From IMG/VR virus record IMGVR_UViG_2671180903_000020: DNA of 27,580 bases; one strand, given 5' to 3'. Below are positions 1,075 to 20,389 of the stretch, piece by piece. This DNA is from a virus. Lineage: Duplodnaviria; Heunggongvirae; Uroviricota; Caudoviricetes. Numbering within the stretch: the first letter of the stretch is position 1; each line of letters begins with the position of its first letter. Both the position numbers and the translations under genes were made by a program. The notes under the pieces are model-generated. The model ran no database searches and was not told the origin of the DNA. It saw nothing but the letters and a program-made list of their open reading frames with translations.

Positions 1075-1270
1075 TTCTGATCCTCTTCAAAAGGCTACCT
1101 GTTACTGGTCGATTTAAGTCAACCTTTACCGCTGATTCGTGGAACAGATACTCTCTTCCATCCTTAACCGGAGGAGGGAATATCCTGCATTCGCGCACCC
1201 ATCGACGAACTGTTTCAAGGCTTCTTGGGCGTCGCTGGCGTGCATTCCACTCCTGAAGTGTCAAGTACAT
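1052..1270 (-). CDS. xis: Excisionase (72 aa)
   Basis: Protein MYLTLQEWNARQRRPRSLETVRRWVRECRIFPPPVKDGREYLFHESAVKVDLNRPV... matches lambda Xis from memory; 23-nt overlap with int start. Confidence 0.9.
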   Translation of the reverse strand: MYLTLQEWNARQRRPRSLETVRRWVRECRIFPPPVKDGREYLFHESAVKVDLNRPVTGSLLKRIRNGKKAKS

Positions 1271-1560
1271 CGCAAAGTCTCCGCAATTACACGCAAGAAA
1301 AAACCGCCATCAGGCGGCTTGGTGTTCTTTCAGTTCTTCAATACAAATATTGGTTACGTCTGCATGCGCTATCTGCGCCCATATCATCCAGTGGTTATAG
1401 CAGTCGTTGATGTTCTCTGCTTCGATAACCCTGTTGAATGGCTCTCCATTCCATTCACCTGTGACTCGGAAGTGCATTTATCATCTCCATAAAACAAAAC
1501 TCGCCGTAGCGAGTTCAGATATAATTTCCACCAAAGGCAGTAGTTGCTTGATGCTAAGAA

Positions 1561-1989
1561 TTATTCAATATCTATTCCTGTAATATCTTTTATCTTTTTC
1601 CTTGCAAAGCCTTTTGCTAGTGATTTTGAAACACTCATAAGTGTACTAATTCCCTCATCCTTAAAGTTTGTTTTTATAGCTTGCCAGACATCCTTTTGAC
1701 GTAAGTCAGCAATAAAATCATGCCCTCTTGCTGTCAACCTCAGTGGTACTTCGATCCAACTATATCCAACACCTTCCCCTAACGCTTTGGACATTATATG
1801 ACCGAACCCAGGTTTTCCATCAACCCTGACTATTAATTCGTAGTCACATAATAATCGCATATGGAAAATAAAATCTTGGTCATATCTATTAAAGCCATTA
1901 TCCTCTAGTTCACTAAGCATCGTGTCAGGGCCACGAGTTTTTTCGAATGCGATAAGTAGATCTTTTAGATATTGCTGGTCTAATTTCAT
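1561..1989 (-). CDS. Hypothetical protein (142 aa), AT-rich accessory gene; family not recognised
   Basis: Intact ORF with GGAGGCGGC Shine-Dalgarno upstream of ATG at 1989; markedly lower GC than int/xis; 28-nt spacer to upstream gene suggests co-transcription. Confidence 0.6.
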   Translation of the reverse strand: MKLDQQYLKDLLIAFEKTRGPDTMLSELEDNGFNRYDQDFIFHMRLLCDYELIVRVDGKPGFGHIMSKALGEGVGYSWIEVPLRLTARGHDFIADLRQKDVWQAIKTNFKDEGISTLMSVSKSLAKGFARKKIKDITGIDIE

Positions 1990-2017
1990 TGCCGCCTCCG
2001 TGACATGTCACAGAGAT

Positions 2018-2356
2018 TTATATCATTAATTTTGTTTCGTGCCAGCCTTTGGTCACCCAGCATTGTGAGTCACCATTACACGGGCATGAATTAACAGGAA
2101 CTCTCTCGCCGCACTTACCGCAACGTTTTCTGCTGATCGATTTTATACGCCAGCGCACACGTGCATCATCCTGGCGGCTCAGTAACTCGATGTACTCACC
2201 AAACTCGCAAGGCGCACGCCTGAAGCGACGCGTGGCACAGTTACGCTCCAGCATTTCAATTTCCTGAGCATCAAGTACAAGCTCCAGCTTACGCATACCG
2301 GATGATGCTTGCTTGGCTCTCTGATCGGCTTTGTGCTCTGTTGCTGATTTAGCCAT
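2018..2356 (-). CDS. Hypothetical Cys-rich protein (112 aa) with possible ribbon-helix-helix-like N-terminus and C-terminal CxxC...CPC cluster
   Basis: ORF in track; motif KLELVLDAQEIEMLERN then RKRCGKCGERVPVNSCPCNGDSQC; function not recognised. Confidence 0.5.
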   Translation of the reverse strand: MAKSATEHKADQRAKQASSGMRKLELVLDAQEIEMLERNCATRRFRRAPCEFGEYIELLSRQDDARVRWRIKSISRKRCGKCGERVPVNSCPCNGDSQCWVTKGWHETKLMI

Positions 2357-2552
2357 TCTGCTTTTCCTGCATCAGGAGAAAGACAATCATGGCGGCGCGG
2401 ATACTTCCGGTATCTTTTTACGCGATATTCCCCTTCAATGGCACATACAAGAAGAGAGCCATCAACAGGAGTGATTGAGGAATCGACAACCAGCAACGCT
2501 TAATTATCTATAGTGTCGTATTTGCTTCATAAAATATGGCGAATAACACAAA

Positions 2553-2584
2553 GCCCGCAGCAGCTCATTGTGCGGGCTTTTCTT
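2553..2584 (-). terminator. Rho-independent terminator-like hairpin (GCCCGCA/TGCGGGC stem) with T/A runs on both sides; possibly bidirectional
   Basis: aaGCCCGCAgcagctcattgTGCGGGCtttt read directly; lies just downstream of the 2650..3264 gene on the minus strand. Confidence 0.5.
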
Positions 2585-2649
2585 ATACCTACCTCCTAGA
2601 GATAATTCTATGGAGGCATTAAATCAATACTGTCATTGGTGATATCATA

Positions 2650-3264
2650 TTATCTAAAAGTCTTTCCACTTTTAACATCTAGGTATATTCTGTTCGACAA
2701 CGTCATTCCTCCGCAATATGTGAAATAGATGTTTTCACCCTTATTGCTTGATGCCATCCACCCTCCGATTTCCTTAAAATCGCTTTCCGTGCAGACCCCT
2801 TCATTTATTAACTTCCTAGCTGCCGAAGAAAACTCTTTTTTGTATATACGGTAGTCATCAGATCCTTTGATTAAAGTATCATCTCCGCTCGCATTTTCAG
2901 CAGGATCTGATGGCCTTTCACTGCTAAGATCACTAAGTTTAACCCATTCTGAAAACTTGCCATTAACGATTCCATTTTTTCTTGTGCAGGATTTATTACC
3001 TTCTTTAATATATTCGCTTTCCCCTCCAACACATGAGGCTGAATATGGCTCAGTTATACGAACCCATTCACCTTTTTTTTCTAGAAAATCTACGCCTTCC
3101 CTGAAAAATAGTTTCCCAGCCACTCCACATTTACTTGAAGGGCAGGTATGTCTTTCCGTTCGATCAACAACAACCCATAGTTTTGATTCATTTTTTGCCA
3201 TTGCCGATGGTATTTGAGATGAGACAATTAACGTAAGCCCTAAAATTAGTATTGATTTTTTCAT
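2650..3264 (-). CDS. Secreted Cys-rich protein of unknown function (204 aa) with Sec-type signal peptide
   Basis: N-terminus MKKSILILGLTLIVSSQIPSAMA-KN; about eight Cys in mature part; AT-rich coding sequence compared with flanking phage genes. Confidence 0.65.
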   Translation of the reverse strand: MKKSILILGLTLIVSSQIPSAMAKNESKLWVVVDRTERHTCPSSKCGVAGKLFFREGVDFLEKKGEWVRITEPYSASCVGGESEYIKEGNKSCTRKNGIVNGKFSEWVKLSDLSSERPSDPAENASGDDTLIKGSDDYRIYKKEFSSAARKLINEGVCTESDFKEIGGWMASSNKGENIYFTYCGGMTLSNRIYLDVKSGKTFR

Positions 3265-3562
3265 TGTAATTTCCTTTTACTTTTTACAAAGCGTTTAATC
3301 ATGGCTGATTATCTCTAAGCGTAGTAACAGCCTTGTGCGAAACATGTTACCAAATCGCCATTTCAGTGTATCCGCAGTTAGGCTGCCACTTCAAGGATTC
3401 CTAATTACATGGTACGTAAGCGTAAAATCCCGTTGGTTGGCGGGTAATAACTCTGATCAAATCTCCCTTGTCTTTTGCTCTTACGTATGCAGCTCTTGTG
3501 TATTCAACCCAGGCCTCCAGTTCAGCAATACGCTTACTTCCATCCGAGATAACACCTTCTAC

Positions 3563-3814
3563 TCACGCTGCTCGTTGAGTTTTGATTTTTGCTGTCTCCA
3601 GCTCAACACGCAGTTTCCCCACCGTTAGCGCAATATCCTCGTTATCCTGGTCGCGGCGTTTGATGTATTGCTGGTTTCTTTCCCTTTCATCCAGCAGTGT
3701 CAGCACAATCGATGGTGTTACCAGCTCATGGAAATGGTCCGCGTCAAATCCCCAGTTGTCATGCATTGCCTGCTCTGCCGCTTCACGCAGTGCCTGAGAG
3801 TGAATTACGCTCAC
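3563..3814 (-). CDS. Hypothetical protein (83 aa) in the position lambda gives to ea22
   Basis: ORF in track, 4-nt overlap with upstream orf73-like gene; no family recognised. Confidence 0.45.
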   Translation of the reverse strand: MSVIHSQALREAAEQAMHDNWGFDADHFHELVTPSIVLTLLDERERNQQYIKRRDQDNEDIALTVGKLRVELETAKIKTQRAA

Positions 3815-4032
3815 TTCGAACCTCTCTGTTTACTGATAAGCTCCAGATCCTCCTGGCAACTTGCACAAGTCCGACAACCCTGAACGACCAAGCGTCTTCG
3901 TTCATCTATGGGATCGCCACACTCACAACAATGAGTGGCAGATATAGTCTGGTAGTTCAGACGACGCATTTTTATTGCTGTATTGCGCTGTAATTCTTCA
4001 ATTTCTGATGCTGAATCAATGATGTCCGCCAT
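3811..4032 (-). CDS. orf73: TraR/DksA-family C4 zinc-finger protein (73 aa), lambda Orf73-like
   Basis: CCECGDPIDERRRLVVQGCRTCASCQ = CxxC-17-CxxC spacing typical of TraR/DksA; 73 aa as in lambda Orf73. Confidence 0.75.
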   Translation of the reverse strand: MADIIDSASEIEELQRNTAIKMRRLNYQTISATHCCECGDPIDERRRLVVQGCRTCASCQEDLELISKQRGSK

Positions 4033-5452: not shown

Positions 5453-6234
5453 GCTGCCACCTTCTGTTCAGTGGCTTTTTGTTTCAGGAATCCAAGAGCT
5501 TTTACTGCTTCGGCCTGTGTCAGTTCTGACGATGCACGAATGTCGCGGCGAAATATCTGGGAACAGAGCGGCAATAAGTCGTCATCCCATGTTTTATCCA
5601 GGGCGATCAGCAGAGTGTTAATTTCCTGCATGGTTTCATCGTTAACCGGAGTGATGTCGCGTTCCGGCTGACGTTCTGCAGTGTATGCGGTATTTTCGAC
5701 AATGCGCTCGGCTTCATCCTTGTCATAGATACCAGCAAATCCGAAGGCGAGACGGGCACACTGAATCATGGCTTTATGACGTAACATCCGTTTGGGATGC
5801 GACTGCCACGGCCCCGTGATTTCTCTGCCTTCGCGGGTTTTGAATGGTTCGCGGCGGCATTCATCCATCCACTCGGTAACGCAGATCGGATGATTACGGT
5901 CCTTGCGGTAAATCCGGCATGTGCAGGATTCATTGTCCTGCTCAAAGTCCATGCCATCAAACTGCTGGTTTTCGTTGATGATGCGGGACCAGCCATCAAC
6001 GCCCACCACCGGAACGATGCCGTTCTGCTTATCAGGGAAGGCGTAAATTTCTTTCGTCCACGGATTAAGGCCGTACTGGTTGGCGACGATCAGCAATGCG
6101 ATGAACTGCGCATCGCTGGCATCACCTTTAAATGCCGTCTGGCGAAGAGTGGTGATCAGTTCCTGTGGGTCGACAGAATCCATGCCGACACGTTCAGCCA
6201 GCTTCCCAGCCAGCGTTGCGAGTGCTGTACTCAT
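5449..6234 (-). CDS. bet: Single-strand annealing protein Bet (Red beta, 261 aa)
   Basis: Protein [82 protein letters not shown]... matches lambda Bet; 4-nt overlap with exo. Confidence 0.95.
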
Positions 6235-18451: not shown

Positions 18452-20389
18452 ATGTCGATTAAACATTATGATGTTGTCAGGGCGGCGTCGCCGTCAGATC
18501 TTGCGGAAAAGCTGACACACAAACTGAAAGAGGGCTGGCAGCCGTTTGGTAGTCCTGTGGCCATAACCCCTTATACCCTGATGCAGGCGATTGCCGCGGA
18601 GGGGGATGTGACCACGCCAGTGGTTGTGCCCGGCACGGGGGATGGTGGCTATCCGGGAGTGGTCACCACGGAGCCAGATTATTACTACGTTATTCCACTG
18701 GCCGGGCAGTCGAACGGCATGGCTTACGGTGAGGGGCTTCCTCTGCCGCAGACATATGACCGTCCTGACCCGCGTATAAAGCAACTGGCTCGTCGCAGCA
18801 CAGTGACGCCGGATGGCGCTCCCTGTAAATATAACGACATTATTCCGGCAGACCACTGTCTGCATGATGTACAGGACATGAGCCGTCTTAACCATCCGAA
18901 AGCTGACCTGTCGAAAGGTCAGTACGGAACCGTGGGGCAGGGGCTGCATATTGCCAAAAAGCTGCTGCCGTTTATACCGGCGAATGCGGGTATTCTTCTG
19001 GTTCCGTGCTGCCGTGGTGGTTCAGCTTTCACCACCGGGGCAGATGGAACATACAGTGACGTGACCGGTGCCTCAGAGAGTTCTACCCGCTGGGGTGTGG
19101 GCAGGCCGCTGTATAAGGATCTCATCGGTCGTACAAAAGCCGCGCTGGCAAAGAACCCGAAAAATGTGCTGCTTGCCGTGGTGTGGATGCAGGGGGAATT
19201 TGACTTTGACGGAACGCCAGCAAATCACACAGCCCGTTTTACAGAAGTAGTGGAACAATATCGTACGGACCTTGCAGATATGGTGGGACAGTGCGCTGGT
19301 GGTTCTGCTGACGGTGTTCCCTGGATATGTGGAGACACAACTTATTTCTGGAAGCAGAAGAGCGAATCCACTTACCAGACGGTGTACGGCAGTTACAAAA
19401 ACAAAACGGAAAAGAATATTCACTTTGTGCCGTTCATGACCGATGAGAACGGAGCAAATGTCCCGACGAACAAACCGGAAGAAGACCCGGATATTCCGGC
19501 ATCAGGATATTACGGTGCGGCCTCCCGGACGTCGGCAAACTGGACGTCAGCAGACCGTGCGAGCCATTTCAGCTCATGGGCACGCAGGGGGATTATTTCT
19601 GACCGTCTTGCCTCAGCGATTCTTCTCCATGCAGGACGGACGGCTGAACTGGTGGGTGGGGAACAGGTTGTGATGCCGCCGGATGAGAAGCCGTCACCGG
19701 ACACACCATCAACACCGTCAACGGACGGGAAATCAGTGACAACGCTGCTTTATTACCGTGCAACAGAGTCAGGTGGTTTACTGAATCCGCAGGGATGGGG
19801 AGCTGAAGGAGGGCGTGCATTGGTAGTTGATGATGCAGGTGCTGCAGGAGGTAAGGCGCTGAGGTGGACCAAACAGACAGGAAGTTCCTCGTGGTTTATG
19901 CAGCATGATGTCGGTAATGGCGCAGACCTGCTGGAGAAGGGCGGGCTTATCAGTTGTCGTTTTAAAGTTGATGGCACACTGACAGCTAATCAGTACGCAC
20001 TGGCGCTGTACTGGCCGGTTTCTTCACTGCCTCAGGGCGTCACACTGGAAGGTAATGCCGGTCATAACCTGCTGGCGTCGTTTTACGTACAGAGCGATGC
20101 CACAGACCTTAATGTGATGTACCACAAGGGAAATGCTGGTCAGAACACGAAGCTGGGGTCATTCGGCGCATTTGATAACGAATGGCATACGCTGGGCTTC
20201 CGTTTTGCCGGTAACAACAGTATTGAGGTGACGCCGGTCATTGATGGTAAGGACGGGACGCCGTTCATGCTGTCACAGTCACCGGTCGGCACGTTTACGG
20301 CAGACAAATTGCGCGTGACCGATATCACTAGCGGTGCGACATATCCGGTGCTGATTGAAAGTATAACAGTGGAAGTGAATAACCCGTAA
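18452..20389 (+). CDS. nanS-p: Prophage sialate O-acetylesterase (NanS-p type, 645 aa)
   Basis: Recognised from memory as the esterase encoded downstream of stx in Stx phages; N-terminus MSIKHYDVVRAASPSDLAEKLTHKLKEGWQPFGSP; GGGAGA Shine-Dalgarno. Confidence 0.8.
   Translation: MSIKHYDVVRAASPSDLAEKLTHKLKEGWQPFGSPVAITPYTLMQAIAAEGDVTTPVVVPGTGDGGYPGVVTTEPDYYYVIPLAGQSNGMAYGEGLPLPQTYDRPDPRIKQLARRSTVTPDGAPCKYNDIIPADHCLHDVQDMSRLNHPKADLSKGQYGTVGQGLHIAKKLLPFIPANAGILLVPCCRGGSAFTTGADGTYSDVTGASESSTRWGVGRPLYKDLIGRTKAALAKNPKNVLLAVVWMQGEFDFDGTPANHTARFTEVVEQYRTDLADMVGQCAGGSADGVPWICGDTTYFWKQKSESTYQTVYGSYKNKTEKNIHFVPFMTDENGANVPTNKPEEDPDIPASGYYGAASRTSANWTSADRASHFSSWARRGIISDRLASAILLHAGRTAELVGGEQVVMPPDEKPSPDTPSTPSTDGKSVTTLLYYRATESGGLLNPQGWGAEGGRALVVDDAGAAGGKALRWTKQTGSSSWFMQHDVGNGADLLEKGGLISCRFKVDGTLTANQYALALYWPVSSLPQGVTLEGNAGHNLLASFYVQSDATDLNVMYHKGNAGQNTKLGSFGAFDNEWHTLGFRFAGNNSIEVTPVIDGKDGTPFMLSQSPVGTFTADKLRVTDITSGATYPVLIESITVEVNNP

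Follow-up and report, generated by a model that had tools for sequence, protein, structure and literature searches.

The results presented here indicate that a two-gene cassette at positions 1561–2356 of a 27,580-nt stretch of Caudoviricetes DNA (IMG/VR record IMGVR_UViG_2671180903_000020; the whole stretch is hereafter called the window) is probably a mosaic import, in which two independently mobile accessory genes of DNA-binding type are joined at a short palindrome, and not a two-component system. The window corresponds to the left arm of a lambda-like prophage, in the order int, xis, the cassette, and then exo and bet. The cassette consists of two open reading frames (ORFs) with profile matches, both on the minus strand: an upstream gene for a 112-aa protein (2018–2356; intact here) and a downstream gene for a 142-aa protein with a DUF2513 domain (1561–1989). 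The 28-nt intergenic spacer (1990–2017) contains the Shine-Dalgarno sequence of the DUF2513 gene, GGAGG (1995–1999, minus strand, 5 nt before the ATG), and, directly abutting it, a perfect 12-bp palindrome, GTGACATGTCAC (2000–2011, assigned to neither strand). A first-pass annotation, made from the letters alone, had described two co-oriented genes 28 nt apart, a Shine-Dalgarno sequence for the second, and a location between xis and the rest of the leftward operon, all of which holds: the two minus-strand ORFs flank the spacer, GGAGGCGGCA directly precedes the ATG of the 142-aa gene, and the cassette lies between xis and the exo/bet part. The same annotation had likened the two genes to toxin-antitoxin or small defence/anti-defence modules. 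The distribution of the genes, their pattern of decay, their predicted folds, and the behavior of the palindrome argue against that reading.

The first line of evidence comes from the company that each gene keeps. We assembled relatives of DUF2513 from genomes and viral contigs and relatives of the 112-aa protein (the 112-family) from viral contigs, and scanned the ORFs of these loci with profile hidden Markov models of both families. In these retrieval-biased samples, the gene that follows a 112-family gene is DUF2513 in 17 of 68 distinct intact cases (25%) and another gene in the other 51. Among 72 distinct DUF2513 proteins of the subfamily, an intact 112-family gene lies directly upstream in 19, a disrupted one in 5, and the palindrome alone in 4 (3 of these 4 with a recognizable remnant of the last codons of a 112-family gene); the remaining 44 (61%) have neither a 112-family gene nor the palindrome upstream. 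Phage modules of several kinds harbor DUF2513, which can follow replication genes or the lysis cassette and can precede NinB-like genes or terS, and no family recurs in three or more loci among the neighbors of DUF2513 in 59 bacterial genome loci. In these samples, the two genes are found apart more often than together. We conclude that the 112-aa gene and DUF2513 are independent, and not an obligate pair.

The second line of evidence comes from natural knock-outs of the upstream gene. We compared 21 distinct E. coli cassette sequences (alignment cut-off 700 nt; two indel variants stand outside the stop-codon tally). In 10 of the 21, codon 40 of the 112-aa gene, a conserved Cys codon, is changed from TGT to TGA (window equivalent 2237–2239; loci L080–L082, L084–L096, L099, L100, and L104), and in one (L066) codon 79 is changed from TGC to TGA. 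The 112-aa gene of one of the two indel variants has lost 1 nt, and sister loci below the 700-nt cut-off have had their first 39 to 61 codons lost or replaced, in two different ways, so that sister E. coli prophages carry at least five independent disruptions. All 19 full-length, indel-free variants of DUF2513, by comparison, are free of premature stops, and the sole lesion in the gene is a 7-nt duplication that alters the last residues. The ratio of nonsynonymous to synonymous substitution between sister loci is uninformative, with 1–4 synonymous substitutions per gene. Selenocysteine insertion at the codon-40 TGA was considered, since a Cys codon is the one replaced, and was dismissed with no search made for a SECIS element: the codon was read as one inherited nonsense mutation, the other alleles being deletions and frameshifts. 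We conclude that selection on the 112-aa gene is relaxed in the lambda context, where the gene is decaying, and that DUF2513 is maintained. Repeated knock-outs beside a stop-free DUF2513 mean that the 112-aa protein is neither an essential antitoxin nor an indispensable regulator of DUF2513.

The third line of evidence comes from the proteins themselves, each encoded by a real gene with hundreds of full-length homologues. The first-pass annotation had left the 142-aa product unrecognized and had found neither protein assignable to a family; both assignments can now be made. The 142-aa protein has a full-length Pfam match to DUF2513 (PF10711; 42.7 bits vs. a cut-off of 29.6; residues 2–115 on profile positions 1–100 of 100) and belongs to PHROG 585 (function unknown in PHROG), and its close homologues all carry PF10711. 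Structure prediction, proposed at the outset, yields a confident AlphaFold2 model from a 25-sequence alignment (predicted local distance difference test, pLDDT, 91.6; predicted template-modeling score, pTM, 0.81). In the model, three helices are followed by a long four-stranded beta wing and three C-terminal helices, and the three-helix bundle and wing superpose on known winged helix-turn-helix (HTH) regulators, in a MarR/PadR-like arrangement. The model gives weak, generic HTH matches only in a viral fold library, and a profile search of the PDB returns no match for the DUF2513 family or the 112-family. A search of one literature library found no mention of DUF2513, PF10711, phrog_536, phrog_585, or the palindrome, and the paper on phage vB_EcoP_ZX5 treats the repressor, anti-repressor, and integrase only. 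The modeled fold makes it most likely that DUF2513 is an accessory regulator that works on its own and binds nucleic acid or protein; DUF2513 may also serve, as a single gene, in protection or counter-defence, a role with which our tests are compatible.

The 112-aa protein belongs to PHROG 536 (E 1e-47), a family without a Pfam counterpart that carries the name 'transcriptional regulator'. The protein has 394 homologues; the family, with 179 clusters at 50% identity in a set of 1.8 billion representatives, is small. A 59-member family alignment matches E. coli YbfE, a ribbon-helix-helix (RHH) protein, with an hhalign probability of 94.4% (E 8.7e-8; residues 8–70 on 37–94), and the NCBIfam model of YbfE gives sub-threshold matches in 19 of the 59 members; some members also match RHH_5, RHH_1, and RepB weakly and, on the zinc side, DksA/TraR and DZR_2. 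The resulting domain order is a basic N-terminal arm, a YbfE-like RHH domain (about residues 8–70), and a C-terminal four-Cys zinc motif, which bears out the earlier guess of an RHH-like N-terminus around the stretch KLELVLDAQEIEMLERN, present as described. The Cys cluster noted earlier was correctly read in its CGKCG...CPC...C part, in which the ligands of the window copy are C79, C82, C91/C93, and C99: across the family, C79, C82, and one or more Cys within 83–98 occur without exception in the 59 members, and C99 occurs in 58 of them. This motif is the predicted C4 zinc ribbon/finger-type hallmark of the family. The further Cys of the earlier list, C50, is lineage-specific, residue 50 being Tyr in 52 of 59 members; Y50C is one of three departures of the window copy at positions that are at least 90% conserved in close relatives, together with A57E and I60S. 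With a pI of 9.4 (family median 9.2), the 112-aa protein is predicted to be a small basic protein of DNA-binding type.

These results bear directly on the idea of a classical type II toxin-antitoxin system, in which an upstream RHH antitoxin would be paired with a downstream toxin. Gene order, small gene sizes, and an upstream RHH protein do resemble many type II systems. However, where an antitoxin is never lost while its toxin is intact, we find stops at C40 and C79, frameshifts, and deletions in the upstream gene beside a stop-free downstream gene in many genomes; where a toxin fold or family is expected downstream, we find a MarR/PadR-like winged helix, with no toxin family matched for the 142-aa protein in Pfam (DUF2513 only), PADLOC, or NCBIfam; where the genes should co-occur as a unit, we find them mostly apart (the 25% and 61% given above); and the palindrome lies downstream, not upstream, of the RHH gene. 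We therefore consider a type II system very improbable. A search of PADLOC-DB v2 (2023 library) likewise finds no family at E values up to 1 for either protein or for their neighbors. The proposal of a toxin-antitoxin or defence/anti-defence pair thus fails on library search, fold, gene distribution, and repeated loss of the upstream gene, and the cassette should not be carried forward as a candidate of either kind.

The palindrome is linked to the 112-family. Either the full 12-mer or its 10-bp core is found no more than 30 nt from the stop codon in 53 of 68 distinct intact 112-family genes (78%), and in 39 of these 53 the next gene is one other than DUF2513. In phiV10-type 112-family genes, the palindrome overlaps the stop codon (gtgTGA followed by CATGTCAC). 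In L005, L102, and L103, all that remains of a 112-family gene ahead of the palindrome and DUF2513 is its final 12 codons (...GWHETKLVI*). The palindrome occurs once in the window and once in the 46.5-kb genome of the lambda-like phage Chlobot, where the cassette copy is the only one, and two to three times each in phages phiV10 and TL-2011b. In phiV10 (chance expectation 0.13), there are perfect copies at 2262, past the terL terminator, and at 19493, past the last structural gene, and a one-mismatch copy lies at the junction of p55, the 112-family homologue, with terS; in TL-2011b, copies lie at the 112-family stop codon and at the convergent junction of ant and gp43. An exact scan of the collection with GTGACATGTCACGG gave, among the matches listed, sites beside terminators of differing sequence in many ~40-kb contigs, mixed with chance matches in unrelated high-GC contigs. 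Loci that are otherwise identical diverge right after the palindrome, continuing into a 77-aa ORF, terS variants, DUF2513, or different reversed cargo genes. We conclude that the palindrome marks a junction at which cargo differs (nothing, the 77-aa ORF, or DUF2513) and at which mosaic breakpoints fall.

The palindrome is invariant in sequence, without compensatory variants. In the lineage of the window, GGAGG can pair with UCUCU upstream of the palindrome to form a 9-bp RNA hairpin (-10.8 kcal/mol). As a candidate for sequestration of the Shine-Dalgarno sequence, this hairpin was rejected: it is no better than those of shuffled sequences (z -1.45, not significant), its extension is not conserved, and the flanks are unpaired elsewhere. 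The lack of compensatory variation and the unconserved longer hairpin make recognition of the palindrome as a sequence likelier than a generic hairpin.

Further observations concern the junctions themselves. The optional 77-aa ORF (MTCHEGVMPKIRYDLEDMRDN...) starts inside the palindrome and occupies the space from the 112-family gene to terS (L173, 672–905, and phiV10-like relatives); it is found in some otherwise identical phiV10-like phages and missing from others. Immediately beyond the second copy of the palindrome, which lies past the terL terminator, the reverse-strand cargo genes differ from phage to phage; they encode 98–140 aa, and their stop codons adjoin the palindrome (2278–2649 in L224, which is phiV10; 3139–3558 in L173; 2998–3294 in L178). 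In L122, a 101-aa ORF (5653–5958) separates the 112-family gene from DUF2513, with no palindrome at that place; the insertion suggests, once more, that the junction is a cargo hotspot.

The position of the palindrome invites a second reading of the cassette, in which the RHH/zinc protein binds the palindrome beside the ribosome-binding site of DUF2513 and controls it, and DUF2513 is a small effector of defence, exclusion, or anti-defence. The palindrome directly abuts the Shine-Dalgarno sequence, a near-constant spacer is kept in about 15 diverged loci, DUF2513 is low in GC and stop-free in its full-length variants, like selected cargo, and the b-region is known as a cargo site. However, the palindrome stands before another gene in the 39 distinct cases given above and occurs at other operon ends, and is therefore not a DUF2513-specific operator; about half of the distinct E. 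coli variants have lost the presumed regulator to a knock-out and still have an unchanged DUF2513; 61% of DUF2513 genes have neither regulator nor palindrome; and there is no PADLOC match, and a winged-helix fold is atypical for an effector. On balance, we regard this regulator-effector arrangement as improbable, if less so than a type II system.

The distribution of the palindrome also points to the origin of the cassette. In phiV10, p55 closes the rightward early operon and stands directly before terS, an order that TL-2011b shares; L123 and L118 have the order 112-family gene, palindrome, DUF2513, terS, terL. We conclude that the home context of the 112-family is in phiV10/epsilon15-like (Uetakevirus-type) podophages. 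There, the 112-aa protein and the palindrome might together act as a transcription-boundary or late-gene switch, in which case the window copy would be a functionless relic and DUF2513 unrelated cargo. Consistent with this possibility, the gene is the last of the early rightward genes, immediately before terS, in phiV10 and TL-2011b, and the records of both phages annotate no Q-like antiterminator; palindromes lie after the terL terminator, at the end of the structural operon, and at the TL-2011b convergent junction; an invariant palindrome fits recognition by a protein better than a mere hairpin; and the protein is basic and its relic is decaying in the lambda context. On the other side, L006 and L127 keep the palindrome although their predicted beta-strand differs (KLIATI vs. 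KLELVL), some 112-family genes have no palindrome, and the palindrome could be a mere recombination junction or an RNA element. Covariation of the RHH strand with the presence of the palindrome was sought as well and gave no clear pattern, L006 and L127 being exceptions. We hold this switch to be rather unlikely, though the least unlikely of the alternatives, and it would refine rather than contradict mosaic import.

The broader form of the same idea, that the RHH/zinc protein and GTGACATGTCAC constitute an undescribed operon-boundary system of phiV10/epsilon15-like temperate phages, is likewise rather unlikely. If it were true, the last early gene of these phages would encode a candidate site-specific binder, with sites at the early/late boundary and at other operon ends; the binder would gate read-through into the packaging and late genes and incidentally create hotspots for the swapping of cargo, DUF2513 being an example; and the copy in the window would be a transplanted, decaying relic of the system.

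According to the mosaic-import explanation, which we favor, DUF2513 would have entered as cargo at the palindrome junction of a phiV10/epsilon15-like phage, and the block consisting of the 112-aa gene, palindrome, and DUF2513 would then have recombined into the ea8.5 slot of a lambda-like phage, beside an UmuD-like remnant; the direction of this transfer is the one that we infer from the home context. In the new setting, the block would presumably be transcribed by N-antiterminated read-through from pL, the 112-aa gene would be dispensable and decay, and the low-GC winged-helix DUF2513 gene would be kept, its product acting alone as a DNA- or protein-binding accessory factor, an activity that its fold suggests. 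Several observations weigh against this explanation. About 15 loci keep the pair with a 25–28-nt spacer despite protein identities of 47–62% (112-aa) and 54–73% (DUF2513); since the proteins are so diverged, the arrangement must be old, and the adjacency exceeds what chance would give in mosaic phages and could reflect functional coupling. The percentages of paired and unpaired genes are biased by the ways in which loci were retrieved (by DUF2513, by 112-family similarity, and by the palindrome plus GG). The DUF2513 family is mildly acidic (median pI 5.7) and its 'recognition helix' is mostly hydrophobic, so that DNA binding by DUF2513 is not assured. Finally, the AlphaFold2 monomer model of the 112-aa protein is poor (pLDDT 56), with helices but no strand, and was not used for a fold search.

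The layout and composition of the locus delimit the imported block. The cassette is preceded in the window by int (1–1074), xis (1052–1270), a 55-aa ORF of PHROG 676 (1310–1477), which lies between xis and the cassette and is also found in lambda, and a terminator-like hairpin with an 8-bp stem and a T-run (1497–1516), 45 nt past the DUF2513 stop codon, all on the minus strand. Homology to lambda is limited to 1300–1525 (95.6% identity); the 55-aa ORF and the hairpin are therefore lambda backbone, and the foreign block starts just beyond. The cassette is thus not 'next to xis', as it had first been placed. Its description as AT-rich applies to the 142-aa gene (36.4% GC) and not to the 112-aa gene (49.9%), which resembles int (48.8%), xis (48.9%), and the window as a whole (48.2%). 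The view that it occupies a variable cargo site agrees with the end of lambda homology beside the cassette, in a slot that we take, from the lambda gene map, to be that of ea8.5. The stretch 1300–2700 is 99.4% identical to Chlobot and to prophages of 139 complete E. coli genomes, where RefSeq names the pair 'DUF2513 domain-containing protein' and 'hypothetical protein'. A crude scan of 1200–3500 finds no sigma-70-like site on the coding strand, so that expression is presumably by read-through from pL, and a search of window positions 1–8000 matches no Rfam family. As a side observation, the 55-aa ORF is kept at 95–98% in lambda and many lambdoid phages and is unannotated in the original lambda record, J02459.

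On its upstream side, the 112-aa gene is immediately preceded by an UmuD-like (peptidase S24) pseudogene remnant (about 2389–2499, minus strand). A 105-aa ORF at 2179–2496 is UmuD-like in its first 37–54 residues alone, the remainder being the 112-aa gene read out of frame. The Chlobot annotation calls this ORF 'UmuD-like protein' and shortens the 112-aa gene to 46 aa; RefSeq treats the remnant as an incomplete 'DNA repair protein' pseudogene. The interval between the remnant and the next gene holds an inverted repeat that is rich in G+C and has T-rich tails on each strand (2551–2585; the plus-strand half from a hairpin scan, the minus-strand reading by eye, its loop being longer than the scan allows). 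The repeat resembles a terminator and marks the block's upstream edge. That next gene (2650–3264, minus strand, 38% GC, PHROG 8310) looks like separate cargo; its 204-aa product has an N-terminus that resembles a signal/lipobox sequence, and it matches SH3_3 weakly. In the ea region, a 73-aa gene of TraR/DksA type with a C4 zinc finger (3811–4032, minus strand; so annotated in Chlobot and RefSeq) encodes a second small zinc protein of the operon, unrelated to the 112-family.

Both families are catalogued and common in E. coli prophages, and the cassette itself is therefore ordinary. Overall, the first-pass annotation observed the locus correctly in part and guessed the upstream domain well, and its reading of the pair is not supported; the palindrome and the UmuD-like remnant had escaped it. 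What follows from the present results lies elsewhere. PHROG 536 gains a domain assignment, in which a C4 zinc motif follows an RHH domain of YbfE type, and a home location directly before terS. DUF2513, which stands alone and remains stop-free while its neighbor decays, offers phenotype screens a clean candidate in the form of a single gene. Of the leads, the palindrome is the most interesting: a short, invariant handle on how the boundaries of modules and the hotspots for cargo are set in one group of temperate phages.

Comparison with known systems places the cassette more precisely. YbfE, a LexA-regulated RHH protein (PRK11675) for whose own function we know of no description, shares with the 112-family the basic arm and beta-alpha-alpha unit that align to its residues 37–94, but is chromosomal and has no C-terminal four-Cys motif; with 17 bits against an equivalog cut-off of 62, YbfE is a related domain and not an orthologue. 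The 112-family resembles the small zinc-finger late activators Ogr of P2 and Delta of P4 in that it consists of small Cys4 proteins encoded, in its home phages, just upstream of late or packaging genes; Ogr and Delta have no RHH domain, and no sequence relation was seen, none having been looked for. MatP, the organizer of the Ter macrodomain, also contains an RHH domain. The palindrome has the matS half-sites GTGAC/GTCAC (PMC6907758), but a centre of 2 bp rather than 3 bp, and therefore no site matches the matS consensus, GTGACRNYGTCAC (PMC6907758), in the window, phiV10, TL-2011b, or Chlobot. Homology of the 112-family to MatP was rejected (hhalign probability 0.2%). DUF2513, compared with MarR/PadR/HxlR-type regulators, has an extended wing, three extra C-terminal helices, and mild acidity, and bears no sequence relation to any solved structure. 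Finally, the cassette may fall short of the strict definition of a moron (promoter plus gene plus terminator), since no promoter of its own is seen in a crude scan and the downstream hairpin is lambda backbone; it resembles the b-region/ea genes of lambda, and morons, in its slot between the exo/bet side and xis, in a deviant low GC content that is confined to DUF2513, and in the varying position of DUF2513 among phages.

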